Notes under the pieces: generated by a model
Databases searched by the model: none
Seen by the model: only the letters and a program-made list of their open reading frames with translations
What the model was told of the DNA's origin: nothing
Shown here: positions 1,915 through 32,722 of the stretch, piece after piece
Layout of the letters: each line of letters starts with the position of its first letter
How positions within the stretch are numbered: the stretch's first letter is position 1
DNA from: a virus
Taxonomy: Duplodnaviria; Caudoviricetes
Reading direction: 5' to 3' (one strand)
Virus record (IMG/VR): IMGVR_UViG_3300044513_000108
Span: 1-34,406 of that record
DNA: 34,406 nt
Made by a program: the position numbers and the translations under genes

Positions 1915-3774
1915 CTATGTTAACTCTTTGTTTTCGTTAATTAGCCACACTGTCCACTTGTCTGCACCTACCAATCCCTTCTTGATTAGTGCCGTCCGGT
2001 CATCTCCGCGCCTTTTTGGGTCTTTATCGGGCAATTTTCCGCCGTGTGCATCCGCCCATTCACGCGACGGAACGCGGTCTCTGCCGGTGTCTATAATGAC
2101 ATTTCTGAGCGCCTCAAGGGCTATCTTCTGATCCGCATTGAGTGGCTTCGACCGCTTTATCCGCGCCGCCTCATCGCCATCCAGCCTCGTCAGCACCACA
2201 GATGATCCTGATATAGATGCAATCGGCGTCATCTCCAGCGTGATATCGGCCATAGGCTCGGCATCCTTTTGCTTCTCAACGCGCATCGTTATGTAGCTTT
2301 CGTCCTTAGACACCACCACAGACGTGTCTACAGCGCCAAGGATGGCCGACGACCCCCTTGCCCCGCGCTCCGCCGCCTTACCGCTGTGATGCACAAACAC
2401 GACCGCACACTGCACATGATTGCGAATAGCGTCAGCCGCAGATATAACTAACCCGCTTTCGGTCGAGCTATTCTCGTCAGCCCCCAGCATTGCCCGCGCC
2501 AATGTGTCGATATATACCGCCGTCCACTTCCTATCCAGCCTGTCGATTGACCGGATTAGTTTCTCAACCTCAGCCTGATCGCGCATGTTTACGGCCAGAG
2601 GCAACATGTGAAAGTGACCGCTTGTGCCTAATCCGTGCGTTGACTTCCACGCCTTAACGCGCTTACCAAGCCCGCCCACGCCCTCACCGGCTATGTAAAG
2701 CACGTCGCCCTGCTTGGTCTCAATGCCCTGCCATTCGATGCCGTGCGCCTGACACAGCGCCATATCCAGACTGATAAAACTCTTGCCGCTTCCCGGCGGG
2801 CCGTAGATCATACTCAAGCCGTGCGCCGTGATTAGCCCATCGTCACCCTCACCGACCGCCCACTCGATTGGCGGCATGTTCATCAGGTAGTCCTCGTCAA
2901 CGAAATCGAAGTAATCGCCGTCATTATTATCGTTGTTATAATCCTCCGCCTCAACCTCAACCACCGGAGCCTCAGCCACAACCACGGCAGCCTTCACCGC
3001 TGCCGTCAAATCTTCTAAGCCCTTGCCGCTGTCGAGCCAGTCAACGACATCGCCCTTGGCCGGTAGGCCGTCCAGCTCCACCCGCTTTACCCGACCGGCG
3101 ACGCCAAACAGGTTGCCGATCACGATATCCGCATGTTCGCGGCCCGCGTCGTCATTGTCAGCAAGCACCACGACATTGCGTCCAGCGAAATACTGGTTCA
3201 ATACCGGCTGCCACTTCTTGGCACCACCGTGAGACGTTGTGGCGACTAGCCCCAGCTTAGTCAGCCGCTGTGCCGCCTTCTCGCCTTCCACAATAAATAT
3301 TGGCGCGTCAGGGTTGGTGATTATGTGGTGCAGGTTATACGGTAACGCCTCGACGCCATCCATATTAAAGAGCCAGCCACCCTTACCATCTGGCCGACAC
3401 TGCCTAAACGTCTTCGGCTCAAACCGCCTGACCTGATAGCGCACCTCGCCCTGATCGTCGATATAGTCGTACACCGCTGACATAAACCGCGCTGGCTGTA
3501 ACGACTGCTGCGCCTGACGCTGTATGCCGAACTTTCGCTCCAATATCTCAGGTATGTTGCTGGCGATTGTGGCGCCCTCGTTCATCCGCACCAAATCCAC
3601 ACAGCCACCGCCCTCGTTTGTCTCAAAGTCAAACCAAGTGCCTTTGCCCAGATGCACCTCGCGTGAGCCTCTGTTGCCAAAACGGAGCGTCCGGCCTTTT
3701 TGCGACAGCTTCATATTGGGTTCACCCCAATAGTGCCGCGCTATTTGCTCAATGTGAGCTGATATATTTGTCAT
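1915..3774 (-). CDS. Primase-helicase: TOPRIM domain fused to RecA-like/AAA_25 (RepA-type) helicase
   Basis: TOPRIM motifs IVEGEKAA and LADNDDAG, Walker A GPPGSGKS, Walker B VYIDTLAR, and VHHSGK...RGSSA. Start at 3774 overlaps the upstream TGA (ATGA). Confidence 0.9.
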   Translation of the reverse strand: MTNISAHIEQIARHYWGEPNMKLSQKGRTLRFGNRGSREVHLGKGTWFDFETNEGGGCVDLVRMNEGATIASNIPEILERKFGIQRQAQQSLQPARFMSAVYDYIDDQGEVRYQVRRFEPKTFRQCRPDGKGGWLFNMDGVEALPYNLHHIITNPDAPIFIVEGEKAAQRLTKLGLVATTSHGGAKKWQPVLNQYFAGRNVVVLADNDDAGREHADIVIGNLFGVAGRVKRVELDGLPAKGDVVDWLDSGKGLEDLTAAVKAAVVVAEAPVVEVEAEDYNNDNNDGDYFDFVDEDYLMNMPPIEWAVGEGDDGLITAHGLSMIYGPPGSGKSFISLDMALCQAHGIEWQGIETKQGDVLYIAGEGVGGLGKRVKAWKSTHGLGTSGHFHMLPLAVNMRDQAEVEKLIRSIDRLDRKWTAVYIDTLARAMLGADENSSTESGLVISAADAIRNHVQCAVVFVHHSGKAAERGARGSSAILGAVDTSVVVSKDESYITMRVEKQKDAEPMADITLEMTPIASISGSSVVLTRLDGDEAARIKRSKPLNADQKIALEALRNVIIDTGRDRVPSREWADAHGGKLPDKDPKRRGDDRTALIKKGLVGADKWTVWLINENKELT

Positions 3775-4592
3775 TCGATACACTCCCCTTCATCTCCTTG
3801 GCAGAAATAGCCCTCCTCATCAAAGACCCAATCTTGTTGCCTTTGGGCAAAATCCACAAACTCAGCCAAGTTCCTACCCTTACGAAATGTTGATCCAACC
3901 TCTTTTTCCATACGCACCCACCAGTCAACTCTATCTGGATGCTGCTTCGCCATTGACGCTAATATTGATTCACTTTTTAAGAAACAAAAGTCGCAATTGC
4001 CTTTCGGCGTCTTGTTGTCGGCATTGCCAAGTCTCAAATCAAAATTCTGCTTGCGCCAAAACTCACCAATATCTTTTTTGCTTACACCGGAATCAAGTAA
4101 TGGATACCAATAAGACCAACGATCCTTGCTGTCTGTCTTCGCTCGGTGATGCTCGTCTGCCCTTATACCAACGGCGGCTGACCAGTTCTTCCAACCAAGC
4201 TCTTTAACTAAATACCTTTTCATTGGCAGAATCTTTAACTCTGTGGTGCAAAACCTAGCAGCAATATTGGGCAGGTATTTCTTTGCCCTGATAAGCACCT
4301 CAAATGGCTCACCTGTTTTGTTAGCGCCCTGATGATCTGTGACGCGATAGCCAGCCTTTCCGTCAGGTCTGTCGTACTCAATCCAAGTGATTGGCACTCC
4401 CCATTTTTCTTCGCACTCATGCACAAAGTCTAAAGTCTCCGGCATCTCTCTGCCAGTGTTCGCAAACATAACTTGGCAGCGATCTGGCAAATCACCATTC
4501 GCTTGCAGTATGCTATGCAACATGAAGGCGCTAGTTCTACCGCCGCTGAAGCTGATCTGCACGTTGCCCTGCGGCAACTCGTAATTGTTCAT
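3771..4592 (-). CDS. PAPS reductase family (PP-loop adenine nucleotide alpha-hydrolase) protein
   Basis: SFSGGRTS PP-loop, FANTGRE..ETLDF, RFCTTELKI.P, GIRADE..R, GNCDFCFLK. Confidence 0.85.
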   Translation of the reverse strand: MNNYELPQGNVQISFSGGRTSAFMLHSILQANGDLPDRCQVMFANTGREMPETLDFVHECEEKWGVPITWIEYDRPDGKAGYRVTDHQGANKTGEPFEVLIRAKKYLPNIAARFCTTELKILPMKRYLVKELGWKNWSAAVGIRADEHHRAKTDSKDRWSYWYPLLDSGVSKKDIGEFWRKQNFDLRLGNADNKTPKGNCDFCFLKSESILASMAKQHPDRVDWWVRMEKEVGSTFRKGRNLAEFVDFAQRQQDWVFDEEGYFCQGDEGECIE

Positions 4593-5357: not shown

Positions 5358-5786
5358 TCAAAATTGGCTCACAACCGTGAACCCCTCAATTGGATAGTAG
5401 GCACAAACGTCACGATCTTGCGGATCGCCTCGGTCTGACCTACCACCAATATTGACAGAGAACTCGCTGGCAAAGTTTATCCTCACCAATGCGTCCTTGT
5501 ACAATACGATAAAATACGACGGCAAATTCGTGCAAGCGCTAATATCATGCGCCTTGACCACCTTGGCCAAGGATATCATTGCCGTAGGGTACTTATTCAT
5601 CTCAACCGTTCTGGCTTTCAACTCAGCAAAGCCCACAACCTTGTCTAACTCATCCTCAATAATGGCGAAGTCGAGCTTGTATTGCAGCGGCAACTTCACC
5701 AGCGTGTAGCCCTTTTCCGCCAGTAAGTCAGCCACACGCTGTTCGTTGTTGCGGTCGGCTTGTGTCTCATACATTGGCCTAGCCAT
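5358..5786 (-). CDS. PD-(D/E)xK-fold nuclease-like protein
   Basis: NEQRVA...YKLDFAII...FAELKAR fits the E..D..ExK catalytic pattern. Start overlaps the MTase stop region. Confidence 0.6.
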   Translation of the reverse strand: MARPMYETQADRNNEQRVADLLAEKGYTLVKLPLQYKLDFAIIEDELDKVVGFAELKARTVEMNKYPTAMISLAKVVKAHDISACTNLPSYFIVLYKDALVRINFASEFSVNIGGRSDRGDPQDRDVCAYYPIEGFTVVSQF

Positions 5787-6786
5787 TGTGCGCCTCCTTG
5801 ATAGCCCACAATATCCGCGCCGCCACCGGAGGCACGATGCTATTCCCTAACTGTCTAAGTCTGTGTATCCGACCGGGTACCCCATTAGCCACTCGACCCA
5901 CTGCGGGTTCAGGCTCCCACCAACGGCATTGGGCAGGGTATCCTTCGGGTTGCCCTTGCGCTCCTGCCTGCCCTTCCCCGACATTCCCTTGTAATCCCTC
6001 GCCGCTGGCGTTGGATACATCTTCACTTGCGTCGGTAGCTCTATGCCCCTCTTTTGCCCACTCCCTCGGCGACGCACCGTCGAATTGTTCTCCACTAAAT
6101 CCAGCGCCCTGTTTCGCCTCTGTACCGCTGTCGGCGTTGCCCATAGCTTCGGCTCCTGCGCCTCCTGCCACTTCCTGACCGTCTCTGGGTCTACCTGTTC
6201 CCGCAGATTGCTCGGCAAAGCCCTGCCCTTCCGGTGGCCTTCCGCCATCTTCTTGAGGCTCTCCTCTGACCTCTGCGGCAGATGATCCATCGCGTTTGGC
6301 GTAGCCCACAATCCAGCATCTGTCTCTGCGGTGGTAGGCATCCGCACCGACAGCCGGAATAACAAAGCACCTTGTTTGGTATCCTTCGGCTTCCAAGTCA
6401 GATAGCACCTCGTCGAGGCCCATAGAGATGTGGCCAGCAACGTTTTCTCCACAAACCCAAGTCGGCCTGACAGCTTGGATAATTCTAAGCATTTCCGGCC
6501 AGAGGTGTCGGTCATCCTTATCGCCTCGTCTGACCCCGGCGAGCGAGAAGGGCTGGCAAGGATATCCGCCACAAATAATGTCAACTGATCCTCTGAATCT
6601 TTCTGCGTCATTAGCTAACTCCCTCACGTCATCAATTATCTCTGTGTCAGGCCAATGCTTACGCAAGACCTTCTGTGCGTGTTTATCATACTCGCAAAAC
6701 GCGACTGTCTCATAGCCACCCACCAGCTTTTCGCCAGCGTAGCTAAAGCCGCCAATGCCACTAAATAGGTCAAGCATCCTGAGCAT
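5779..6786 (-). CDS. dcm: DNA (cytosine-5)-methyltransferase, alpha-like polypeptide (motifs I-VIII and X)
   Basis: LDLFSGIGG (I), CE.D (II), GGYPCQPFS (IV), ENV (VI), HRRDRCWIVG (VIII), RLRQLGNSIV (X). The VIII-X interval is low-complexity G/E/A with no motif IX. Confidence 0.92.
   Translation of the reverse strand: MLRMLDLFSGIGGFSYAGEKLVGGYETVAFCEYDKHAQKVLRKHWPDTEIIDDVRELANDAERFRGSVDIICGGYPCQPFSLAGVRRGDKDDRHLWPEMLRIIQAVRPTWVCGENVAGHISMGLDEVLSDLEAEGYQTRCFVIPAVGADAYHRRDRCWIVGYAKRDGSSAAEVRGEPQEDGGRPPEGQGFAEQSAGTGRPRDGQEVAGGAGAEAMGNADSGTEAKQGAGFSGEQFDGASPREWAKEGHRATDASEDVSNASGEGLQGNVGEGQAGAQGQPEGYPAQCRWWEPEPAVGRVANGVPGRIHRLRQLGNSIVPPVAARILWAIKEAHNG
5847..6611 (-). CDS. Nested +1-frame ORF: putative MTase beta polypeptide (TRD-like repeats plus motif IX)
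   Basis: 254-aa ORF entirely inside dcm with its own GGGAG SD 7 nt before the ATG. Contains LWATP/LWATP/MYPTP..RDYKG repeats and C-terminal LNPQWVEWLMGYP resembling motif IX. Confidence 0.75.
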   Translation of the reverse strand: MTQKDSEDQLTLFVADILASPSRSPGSDEAIRMTDTSGRKCLELSKLSGRLGFVEKTLLATSLWASTRCYLTWKPKDTKQGALLFRLSVRMPTTAETDAGLWATPNAMDHLPQRSEESLKKMAEGHRKGRALPSNLREQVDPETVRKWQEAQEPKLWATPTAVQRRNRALDLVENNSTVRRRGSGQKRGIELPTQVKMYPTPAARDYKGMSGKGRQERKGNPKDTLPNAVGGSLNPQWVEWLMGYPVGYTDLDS

Positions 6787-6789
6787 ATC

Positions 6790-7233
6790 TCATTTCCTCG
6801 CCATCAAGTCGCGGCACACCATAATGAAGTCAGGCCAAGACAGTGTCGCCGTATAACGCCAGTCGTATGCCTCAGCCACGTCCTGAGCCAGTGGCCGCCC
6901 TAACCGCGCCAGTGCCTCGATGGGTATCCGCACGCTTATGTCCTGCCGGTCTAGCTTCCAGATCAGGCACGGCAGGCAGTCGTTAGGATTTCCTTCTGAC
7001 GTGCGGGCGGCGGTCATTATCTGATCCCACCAAGAAGATGACACGGCATTTTTATATCTTTTCAGTTCCAATAAAAACGGAAACGATGCGTCTGATGACG
7101 TCAGGTCTGCCAGATTTTTCATCTGATACTGCTCAAGGTTGCGCTTAAACTTTATGCCCAACTCATCGAACAACATGCCCGCGATCTGCCTTTCAAACGC
7201 TGCCCCTTTTGCACGCCCTCCACCGGCACGCAT
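6790..7233 (-). CDS. Holliday junction resolvase-like PD-(D/E)xK nuclease
   Basis: GRAKGAAFERQIA...ADL...LELKRYK is an Hjc-like pattern. TGATG coupling with the upstream gene. Confidence 0.75.
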   Translation of the reverse strand: MRAGGGRAKGAAFERQIAGMLFDELGIKFKRNLEQYQMKNLADLTSSDASFPFLLELKRYKNAVSSSWWDQIMTAARTSEGNPNDCLPCLIWKLDRQDISVRIPIEALARLGRPLAQDVAEAYDWRYTATLSWPDFIMVCRDLMARK

Positions 7234-7424
7234 CAACCCCGCCCCGCTTGGTGATCCATTGTCGTCTGGATGTGGCGCTGGCGGATATTGCTCTCAAGCT
7301 GTCTGACCAGCAGCTCATCGGCAAGCGACGACTGACTACGGTGAGCCGACACAGCCAGCTCGGCCTTTAGCATTTCGATGGTCGAGGCTCTGAGCCTCAA
7401 CAAAACTGGTTTAACTTCGCTCAT
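7233..7424 (-). CDS. Ribbon-helix-helix (Arc/CopG-like) regulator
   Basis: KPVLLRL beta strand followed by two helices (STIEMLKAEL; SQSSLADELLVRQL). First gene of the leftward operon, start placed at ATG 7424. Confidence 0.55.
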   Translation of the reverse strand: MSEVKPVLLRLRASTIEMLKAELAVSAHRSQSSLADELLVRQLESNIRQRHIQTTMDHQAGRG

Positions 7425-9004: not shown

Positions 9005-9123
9005 TTAAAGACACAATTTGTATGCTGTTGCTGATGGCATTTGGCTTGGCGTTTTTTACTAGTGCGGTGACCACTGAATATAACGTGTGGGCGCTGATGG
9101 TTCGCTTTGGGGGTGCGGGATGA
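9001..9123 (+). CDS. Small single-TM protein (40 aa)
   Basis: Not in the track. MIKDTICMLLLMAFGLAFFTSAVTTEYNVWALMVRFGGAG; GGGGAG SD; ATGA overlaps at both ends. Confidence 0.65.
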   Translation: MIKDTICMLLLMAFGLAFFTSAVTTEYNVWALMVRFGGAG

Positions 9124-10118
9124 TCGTTTATCTTGCGACCAATACGGTTAATGGTATGCAGTATGTTGGGCTTACGCGCAGAAAAACCTTAGAGCCGCGC
9201 GTCACGGAGCATTTTGCTAAAGCTAGAAATTCTAAAAAAGGAAGCGCCAAAACCATAGCCCACGCTATCAGGGTTTATGGTCAAGACGCCTTCAAGTTTG
9301 AAATTTTGGACAAGACTGAAAACCTAAAAACATTAAGCCGCGCAGAAAGGTATTGGATAAAAAAACTAAACACCAAATACCCAAATGGGTACAACGTAAA
9401 ATCAGGTGGTTGCCCAACTTTTAAATTGGCCTCAGGTGATTTGTATGAAATTGACGGCAAAAAATATTATGGGTGCGGCGATTTGGCAGAGCATTTCACT
9501 GTCAGCGTTCACAATATCAGACACAGGATTTTGAGGGCTGGCTGGACGCCAAGGCAAGCAGTTGAGATTGACGCGCCCCCTGCAAATATTAAAAAGTACA
9601 ATGGAAAACATCACGCCACACTTTCTGTTGGCAAACCCATATTTGTAATGGGCAAAAAATTTACCTCAATAAAAGAGGCTTGCGAGCATTACGGCATATC
9701 GGACAATTTGTATCATTCTCGAAAAAAAATGGGCTGGTCACTTGAAGAAGCATTTGAGATTAAAAAAAGAGACCGCCCAACAAGTCGTGGCAGTGAGATT
9801 ATTGTTGGTGATTTGCTTTTCCCCAGCATATCAAAAGCATCAAAGCATTTTGGGATTAGGGCTGGGTGCGTAACGCAGCGACTATCTAATGGTTGGACAA
9901 TCGCTGAGGCGTTCGGGCTTGAACCAAGGCGCTCTTGGTCTAATTCAACAAAAATAAAAGGGTTTAGCTCAATATCAGAAGCCGCAAGAAAAACCGGCAT
10001 AAACCCACAAACAGTGTCTTGGCGTGTCAGAAATGGCTGGACGCCAGAACAGGCCGTCGGCATTGAGCCAATACACGGCAACAACCAAAACCTTAGAAAA
10101 GAACAAGGAGTAAACTAA
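9120..10118 (+). CDS. Free-standing GIY-YIG endonuclease with four C-terminal HTH-like repeats
   Basis: IVYLATN..NGMQYVG, R..EH, AERYWI and GYN. Repeats of SI.EA..H.GI....R...GW(T/S).E.A. Lower GC than the flanks. Confidence 0.85.
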   Translation: MIVYLATNTVNGMQYVGLTRRKTLEPRVTEHFAKARNSKKGSAKTIAHAIRVYGQDAFKFEILDKTENLKTLSRAERYWIKKLNTKYPNGYNVKSGGCPTFKLASGDLYEIDGKKYYGCGDLAEHFTVSVHNIRHRILRAGWTPRQAVEIDAPPANIKKYNGKHHATLSVGKPIFVMGKKFTSIKEACEHYGISDNLYHSRKKMGWSLEEAFEIKKRDRPTSRGSEIIVGDLLFPSISKASKHFGIRAGCVTQRLSNGWTIAEAFGLEPRRSWSNSTKIKGFSSISEAARKTGINPQTVSWRVRNGWTPEQAVGIEPIHGNNQNLRKEQGVN

Positions 10119-32235: not shown

Positions 32236-32387
32236 GCTTTGGCCTTCTTTCTCTTTTTTGCGGTTTTCGCCGCAGCCTTAAAGGCCGCAGCCGTGGGCGC
32301 ACCCTTGGCTCCGACTTTCCTCATTTTCTCACCGCTACCCGCCTTAATGCGTGCGCGTTTCTTGGCGATATTTCCGTAAAGCGACAT
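32232..32387 (-). CDS. Small highly basic protein (51 aa)
   Basis: Not in the track. MSLYGNIAKKRARIKAGSGEKMRKVGAKGAPTAAAFKAAAKTAKKRKKAKA, coupled at both ends. Confidence 0.75.
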   Translation of the reverse strand: MSLYGNIAKKRARIKAGSGEKMRKVGAKGAPTAAAFKAAAKTAKKRKKAKA

Positions 32388-32458
32388 CAGCAGTATTTAC
32401 CGAGAACCTGCTTTGCGCCGCCCGACTTCTTGCCGCCGTTTTTCTTACCGTATCCCAT
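32387..32458 (-). CDS. 23-aa basic micro-protein
   Basis: Not in the track. MGYGKKNGGKKSGGAKQVLGKYC with AGGAG SD and TGATG coupling to the next gene. Confidence 0.6.
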   Translation of the reverse strand: MGYGKKNGGKKSGGAKQVLGKYC

Positions 32459-32467
32459 AGCTAACTC

Positions 32468-32722
32468 CTAACATTTCCATCTTGCCCTAGCTGCCTTGCC
32501 GCGTGGGCCAGTCCAGCTCTTTGATCTGGCGCAAAAACTCTTGCGCCGCTTTGCGTCTGCGCTACCGGCTTTGACTTTGCCGGTCACAGGTGCCTTTAAT
32601 TTTGAGCCTGTTGCTCGGTTGTATTTTGCACGACCCTTCGCAGTAAGTCCACCACCAGCCTTGACCGACTGCTTTTCACCACGTCCGACTGATAGGTTGA
32701 CGCTTTTCTTGCGTGGGGGCAT
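32468..32722 (-). CDS. DUF6321-like small basic protein
   Basis: GGLTAKGRAKYNRATGSKLKAPV...RRKSFCAR...RWKC. Confidence 0.75.
   Translation of the reverse strand: MPPRKKSVNLSVGRGEKQSVKAGGGLTAKGRAKYNRATGSKLKAPVTGKVKAGSADAKRRKSFCARSKSWTGPRGKAARARWKC

Follow-up and report, generated by a model that had tools for sequence, protein, structure and literature searches.

The methylase locus described here lies on the minus strand of a virus record of 34,406 bases with a completeness of 96%, the whole of which is referred to as the window. The top DNA matches of this record are estuary metagenomes, and the phage is described as marine. RNA runs shared only 0.05-0.11 of its sequence words. The window encodes an SU10-type portal and a capsid, as well as a replication cluster in which the methylase lies together with primase/helicase, a PAPS reductase-like gene and two PD-(D/E)XK nucleases. 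The methylase itself consists of a long frame, termed alpha (5779..6786), and a second frame nested within it, termed beta (5847..6611), both on the minus strand (coordinates written with two dots below likewise refer to the minus strand), and there is one beta-like locus in the genome. Downstream, a gene encoding a PD-(D/E)XK nuclease (5358..5786, PF24579) overlaps the alpha stop codon, and upstream lies a gene encoding a RusA-like resolvase (6790..7236, phrog_244). The repeated part of the locus is spanned gap-free by contigs of four DNA runs, including X1 (5955-6335), which may be the source sample, and X3 (5997-6335), and an assembly artefact is therefore unlikely. The PAPS reductase-like gene (3771-4592) is possibly a second DNA-modification gene; only 4 of the 32 related loci have it close to the methylase, a count limited by the available flanks. 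A GIY-YIG homing endonuclease with NUMOD/HTH domains is located in the early region at 9087-10118.

The alpha frame encodes 335 amino acids and contains motifs I-VIII and X of the C5 DNA methyltransferases, in agreement with the original prediction. Its match to PF00145 is confined to residues 3-166 (E 3.6e-38), it aligns to M.HhaI over residues 2-161, and it matches phrog_363 with an E value of 2.2e-75. The structural model of alpha superimposed on M.HhaI (10mh) with a Z score of 19.9 and an rmsd of 2.7 over 196 residues of M.HhaI's 327. The motif numbers are those that we take to apply from the consensus together with the M.HhaI alignment: motif I (DLFSGIGG, SAM binding) is located at 6748..6771, motif IV (GGYPCQPFS), which contains the catalytic Cys77, at 6544..6570, motif VIII (YHRRDR) at 6319..6336, and motif X (LGNSIVP) at 5830..5850. 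Residues P76 and C77 are invariant in all 58 aligned rows. Thus, motifs I-VIII, the catalytic Pro-Cys and the SAM-binding fold expected of the PF00145 family are all found in alpha, and motifs IX and X are both present at the locus, X in alpha and a IX-like block in beta. The interval between motifs VIII and X had been described as low-complexity filler, and this is what we found: residues 166-288 (5923..6291) are composed of 22% G, 15% A, 12% E and 9% Q, residues 168-314 of the model are unconfident, and the filler has a pLDDT below 50. Only 10% of the changes in this region are alpha-synonymous, with 22% possible. The patterns of selection, the low pLDDT and the absence of this segment from variants described below point to a passive read-through of the beta frame.

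The beta frame encodes 254 amino acids in the +1 frame; the coordinates proposed for it (6611-5847) and its end, LNPQWVEWLMGYPVGYTDLDS, were both verified. It matches PHROG 1008, annotated as 'DNA methyltransferase', with an E value of 6e-31, and it has 1,417 homologues of similar length. The ATG is preceded by a Shine-Dalgarno sequence, AGGGAG (6619..6624), which is built from an Arg-Glu codon pair of alpha, with the GGGAG reported earlier at 6623-6619, 7 nt from the ATG. A +1-frame TAG at 6617-6615 lies two codons 5' of the ATG. Of 33 close loci, 30 share the beta start; the Arg codon that forms the Shine-Dalgarno sequence is AGG in 28 of these, and the junction that forms the ATG is retained in all 30. 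When codons 59-313 of alpha were recoded synonymously in 2000 draws, the +1 frame contained on average 4.1 stops and was free of stops in 0.8% of the draws; conservation in relatives is far stronger evidence for beta than this recoding test. The original prediction also held that the 11-mer GGAGTTAGCTA at this site is identical to the translation-initiation region of another gene. A second copy of the 11-mer is indeed present at 32468-32458, where its final A doubles as the first base of the ATG of a 23-amino-acid open reading frame (32458-32387), so that it lies one base closer to the start and not in the same initiation register. Furthermore, the exact 14-mer at the beta start is kept in only 5 of 33 loci, the upstream sequence differs in two relatives that carry the 23-amino-acid frame, and 570 11-mers are repeated in the window. 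The match, being out of register, unconserved at both sites and one of 570, is therefore real but weightless, and we rejected it as evidence for the beta start. The second copy and its small frame (32387..32468) lie outside the methylase system; the frame encodes a basic peptide, has a Shine-Dalgarno site, is conserved in L387 and L389, and probably represents a genuine small gene in a group of short Lys-rich ones.

Both frames were then examined in relatives. A first set of 54 loci was picked by the alpha protein alone, of which 39 were complete, 10 were cut before motif X and 5 had no start. In 38 of the 39 complete loci, the +1 frame had no stops from motif IV to motif X, compared with 5-18 stops in the +2 frame in all 39; the exception, L050, has a later beta start. 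This locus (L050:3001-3747) and L051:1521-2267 are mosaic alleles with window-like ends and a different middle, in which beta starts after motif IV and contains a single module. Profile scans of viral and bacterial contigs supplied a further 160 loci, which widened the set to a total of 214 loci, 166 of them unique and complete; each contig scan contributed the best 80 of about 590 loci, and the set is therefore biased toward the clade of the window. Across these 166 loci, which are related and thus do not provide independent counts, 2 of the 14,940 codons under motifs IV-VIII and 24 of the 20,884 under the filler were stops in the +1 frame, compared with 731 and 1,308, respectively, in the +2 frame. 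Outside beta, the +1 frame is closed, with 3-7% stops upstream of the start region and 7% past motif X. It is stop-free until ten codons before motif X in 152 of the 166 loci. Among the other 14, the stop is the beta end past the motif IX block in 10 and occurs before a recognisable block in 4 loci from Streptomyces (L267, L286, L288 and L298), where the motif IX-like block that follows is degenerate. By comparison, seven single-chain C5 methyltransferases showed 9-29 stops each in the +1 frame. An in-frame ATG near motif IV was found in 158 of the 166 loci, and a Shine-Dalgarno-like word preceded it in 127 of the 158, compared with a background of 15%, although this count is inflated by the several ATGs tried per locus.

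The substitution patterns show that the dominant selection switches between frames along the gene. In the 5' part that codes for alpha alone, the alpha-synonymous fraction was 0.84; it fell to 0.46 where the core overlaps beta and to 0.21 before motif IX, and stood at 0.63 past the beta end, and the beta-synonymous fraction reached 0.46 before motif IX. Within the repeated units of beta, 540 of 875 distinct changes (62%) were beta-synonymous and 84 (10%) were alpha-synonymous, and the alpha frame contained no stop in 2,013 codons, where about 125 would be expected. The absence of stops together with the small number of alpha-synonymous changes indicates that the alpha frame must stay readable here while its sequence is free. 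Frequent +1 stops in homologues, which would have spoken against the proposed gene, were thus not seen, and the open frames and suppressed synonymous variation anticipated by the original prediction are present in relatives. These results confirm that beta is a real gene, with both frames conserved and under selection.

The end of beta had been likened to motif IX, and three lines of evidence agree with this assignment, namely its position before motif X, its predicted contacts with alpha and a weak match to DRM-type methyltransferases. The block in question, LNPQWVEWLMGYP (5874..5912), is part of the segment (beta residues 231-253) that is predicted to contact motif X and the motif I-III region of alpha. 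In addition, an N-terminal arm of beta (residues 45-89, 6345..6479) is predicted to pack on residues 137-153 and on the C-terminal helix of alpha; in 104 aligned rows of this arm, S66 and L87 are invariant and W64, L71 and W73 nearly so. The complex that the original prediction proposed to model received a score of 0.91, compared with 0.39 for the best of three controls, with a contact agreement between runs of at least 69% and a partner pLDDT of at least 63. The mark applied to this score was passed by 116 of 157 solved complexes and by 2 of 215 mismatches, counts that apply approximately here because own alignments were used for the prediction, and halves of a split enzyme may pass it because they resemble single-chain structures already solved. 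A profile built from beta ends that continue into motif X gave six hits in the PDB, all of them to C5 methyltransferases of the DRM type and weak (E 0.034-0.061), and the alignment places the LNP..EWLMG block on the segment preceding motif X. Against seven single-chain methyltransferases, the IX-X profile aligned mostly motif X. Beta as a whole had no significant match in Pfam, NCBIfam or PDB sequences, and when folded alone it gave a poor model (pLDDT 56) with no Foldseek match at E 0.001 and a best VIA Z score of 3.9.

The earlier reading overlooked an exchangeable module array in beta. Past the first approximately 100 conserved residues, beta consists of tandem units anchored by W(P/A)TP, three of which are present in the window: module 1 (WATPNAMD..., type M1, 55 amino acids, 6144..6308), module 2 (WATPTAVQ..., type M4, 42 amino acids, 6018..6143) and module 3 (YPTPAARD..., type M5, a type found in the last position, 35 amino acids, 5913..6017). 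Typing at 50% identity of 188 modules from 69 unique loci gave 52 types in 52 arrangements, with 1-5 modules per locus, and 460 distinct module sequences were collected across loci. Natural arrays of the types in the window include M4-M5 in L005 and, with M3 in the middle, M1-M3-M5 in L004. The median module length is 41 amino acids with a range of 16-69, and some modules are clearly truncated (11-16 amino acids). When pairs with at least 90% identity of core DNA were compared among 32 loci, the arrays differed in 140 of 142 pairs, and 51 pairs had no module in common, which shows that modules are swapped whole among close relatives. The target-recognition domain (TRD) of C5 methylases sits just before motif IX, and this slot is occupied here by the array. 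The modules showed no significant likeness to Pfam families and none to solved folds, the beta model being poor, and the module profile matched neither the variable region of an MtbP-like methylase of SPbeta (E 0.28) nor a second methylase of the SPbeta group significantly. The modules (residues 102-230) also lie outside the confident interface of the complex model. The suggestion that beta carries target recognition draws support from position and selection, although not from likeness to any known TRD, and the array is likely the DNA-reading part of the methylase.

Variants of the enzyme provide further information on how the motifs are divided. In five distinct sequences among all loci collected (L140, L142, L160, L241 and L374), a single frame contains both the LNP..EWLMG block and motif X, and in four of these five alpha ends 10-15 residues past motif VIII. 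The block is thus motif IX by position, and the alpha filler is probably dispensable. In the loci L140:2302-3904, L143:2299-4003, L160:2278-4099 and L374:2498-3677 and in the proteins P0090 and P0202-P0211, alpha ends shortly past motif VIII, and beta starts inside alpha, in these relatives ahead of motif IV, and contains the modules, motif IX and motif X. An apparent three-piece form was seen at L159:1716-3272, where the alpha core stops and motif X is found in a later same-frame open reading frame overlapping beta; the copy at this locus is possibly broken. Some modules of the array in L140, L150 and L160 contain an HTH-like block (..TTIEHWFRKDK..) of roughly 100 amino acids with weak HTH matches in Pfam; the block is also found at the beta C-terminus, past motif IX, in L193 and L197, and it may be an extra DNA-binding unit. 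No natural single chain with modules between motifs VIII and IX was found in 217 homologues or 240 classified loci, which is weak evidence of absence. The family could have originated by a compensating pair of frameshifts around the TRD-motif IX segment of a single-chain ancestor, with the beta start and arm overprinted later.

Similar arrangements have been described for other enzymes. In M.EcoHK31I of E. coli, which recognizes YGGCCR, two reports place beta wholly in an alternative frame within alpha, assign motifs I-VIII and X as well as the predicted TRD to alpha and motif IX to beta, and state that an N-terminal deletion of beta abolishes association (PMC2836561, PMC3404938). Internal Met codons are reported to have rescued M.EcoHK31I, and the window beta has a downstream Met at residue 33. 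The window enzyme is alike in layout, its beta having a start of its own in a different frame within alpha, and in the division of the motifs, and its predicted arm matches the N-terminal part required for association in M.EcoHK31I. It differs from M.EcoHK31I in that alpha residues 166-288, where a TRD would be assigned to alpha by analogy, show no sign of selection, are disordered in the model and are missing from variants, and in that its beta contains a tandem exchangeable array, M.EcoHK31I being monospecific. In M.AquI (PMC3404938), one chain contains motifs I-VIII along with a portion of the variable region, and the other contains the distal variable region and motifs IX-X. The relatives L140, L142/L143, L160 and L374, with modules, IX and X in beta, resemble this arrangement, although their beta starts inside alpha, and the window enzyme, unlike M.AquI, keeps motif X in alpha. 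Multispecific C5 methyltransferases of temperate Bacillus phages have several TRDs per chain (PMC12707154), and the window enzyme shares with them tandem exchangeable units before motif IX in a phage, plausibly directed at more than one restriction system; it uses two frames, whereas the Bacillus phage enzymes are single chains in a single frame, the MtbP-like gene containing 29 stops in the +1 frame. An arrangement with both genes annotated is that of Paenibacillus phage Bloom (MH454077), in which BLOOM_56 and BLOOM_57 form the same nested pair, PHROG 363 and PHROG 1008, both annotated as DNA cytosine methyltransferase, with a beta of three modules that is 38.6% identical to the window beta. 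PMC6070908, in its accessible part, lists two methyltransferases and does not discuss nesting. Six more distant phage records contain the same kind of +1 open reading frame with one full frame annotated only, and most other records annotate one of the two frames. The expectation that standard annotation would miss beta therefore does not hold throughout, as Bloom and the match of beta to PHROG 1008 show. In a literature search of limited coverage, and hence of weak weight, no paper describing the phage family or the modules was found, and the available parts of PMC11855218, on out-of-frame HNH genes in phage methylases, and of PMC5009743, a review of frameshifting, do not cover the nested layout. 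The nested layout is already known from M.EcoHK31I and from the Bloom annotation.

Taken together, conservation, codon-position selection and the predicted complex argue for an alpha/beta methyltransferase made from dual-coding DNA, and we consider it very probable that two chains, read in two frames from one mRNA, form one C5 DNA methyltransferase. In such an enzyme, ribosomes would initiate at 6786 and internally at 6611 on the single mRNA, alpha would perform SAM binding and catalysis, and the N-terminal arm and motif IX of beta are predicted to dock on the alpha catalytic domain and motif X, with the alpha filler serving only to connect the core, in frame, with motif X. Alternatively, the same DNA could yield one fused enzyme, with no separate beta, through two programmed frameshifts, from alpha into beta past motif VIII and back past motif IX. 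Such an A-B-A order would produce the canonical order of motifs I-X, a single shift would complete the enzyme where alpha ends past motif VIII, and the database proteins P0079 and P0193 do join both frames. However, each of these two proteins, out of 217, is without the catalytic core or without motif X; the open stretch of the +1 frame reaches about 100 codons upstream of motif VIII, and a conserved ATG and Shine-Dalgarno sequence follow directly on its closed part; and no run of at least 5 identical bases occurs at the locus. The conserved beta arm, within the predicted interface, also favours a separate start over frameshifting, and we regard the fused product as very improbable. It is equally hard to believe that beta is a separate DNA-binding or regulatory protein overlapping by chance, with alpha working alone or inactive. 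The lack of homology of beta to solved proteins and the HTH-like insert in some betas would fit such a role, but alpha has neither a TRD nor motif IX, only the part noted above aligns to M.HhaI, the catalytic residues of alpha are invariant, the beta end runs straight into motif X in the five variant sequences, and the two chains are predicted to form a complex. The gene of the neighbouring PD-(D/E)XK nuclease overlaps the alpha stop, and 28 of 32 loci have it, which raises the further possibility that nuclease and methylase form a restriction-modification pair in which the methylase confers protection. This is highly unlikely, considering that nuclease identity is 99% in L006, whose array differs, and 79% in L001, where all three modules are shared, that the nuclease is missing in L015 and L048 despite sufficient flank, and that the upstream gene is RusA-like. 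Because changes in the array are not matched by the flanking nuclease, the methylase more likely protects on its own than within a restriction-modification pair, and the phage would employ the enzyme as a solitary anti-restriction methylase.

Within the two-chain enzyme, it remains to consider how many modules read DNA. The modules would serve as target-recognition units, the last one at least, and all three if the enzyme is multispecific, to which we give somewhat less than an even chance. The last module alone might read DNA, the upstream modules being recombination remnants, spacers or accessory binders; for this single-specificity form of the two-chain enzyme speak the nearly separate pools of last-position and internal types, with 1 of 52 types (M1, in 1 of 37 copies) found in both, the existence of 5 single-module loci among 69, and the occurrence of truncated internal modules. 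In contrast, purifying selection in the beta frame acts on internal modules, as pooled with last modules, internal types recur in distant loci (M1 in 37 copies), and long homologues have arrays of up to 8-9 anchors. We look on a single specificity as possible but rather doubtful. A broader proposal, which we put forward tentatively and would not quite back against its contrary, is that in a very large family of phage methylases the modules are minimal target-recognition cassettes in a hidden frame, recombined at their conserved anchors to match host restriction enzymes, with the passive alpha frame allowing the array to change without touching the catalytic chain; the family would toggle between nested and M.AquI-like splits, which would link both oddities.

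In a common clade of phage and prophage methylases, the layout familiar from one bacterial enzyme is thus the usual one, and annotations or methylome assignments that see alpha alone miss the chain that likely sets specificity. The locus also offers a clear example of extended dual coding on one strand, with dominance passing from one frame to the other along the gene. Should the modules be recognition units, they would constitute a natural library of hundreds of DNA readers of about 40 residues on one scaffold, the anti-restriction specificity of phages would be directly testable, and parts for targeted methylation would be at hand. In this way, the modules may decide which DNA sites the phage shields from host restriction enzymes. 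When module types were compared with site avoidance in 30 loci of at least 6.5 kb, no consistent pairing was seen; for instance, TGCGCA is tolerated in two loci with type M11 and avoided in three others. The window is strongly depleted of restriction-type sites, with 0 CCWGG (131 expected), 2 GGWCC (60 expected) and 0 GCCGGC (31 expected), and this fits a restriction-rich host, although avoidance does not name the target of the methylase. Over the whole window (1-34406), avoidance is nearly complete for CCWGG, CCATG, GGWCC, GASTC, CCCGT and many 6-base palindromes, and most relatives are alike in this respect, with several of the avoidances relaxed in L393 and L422.
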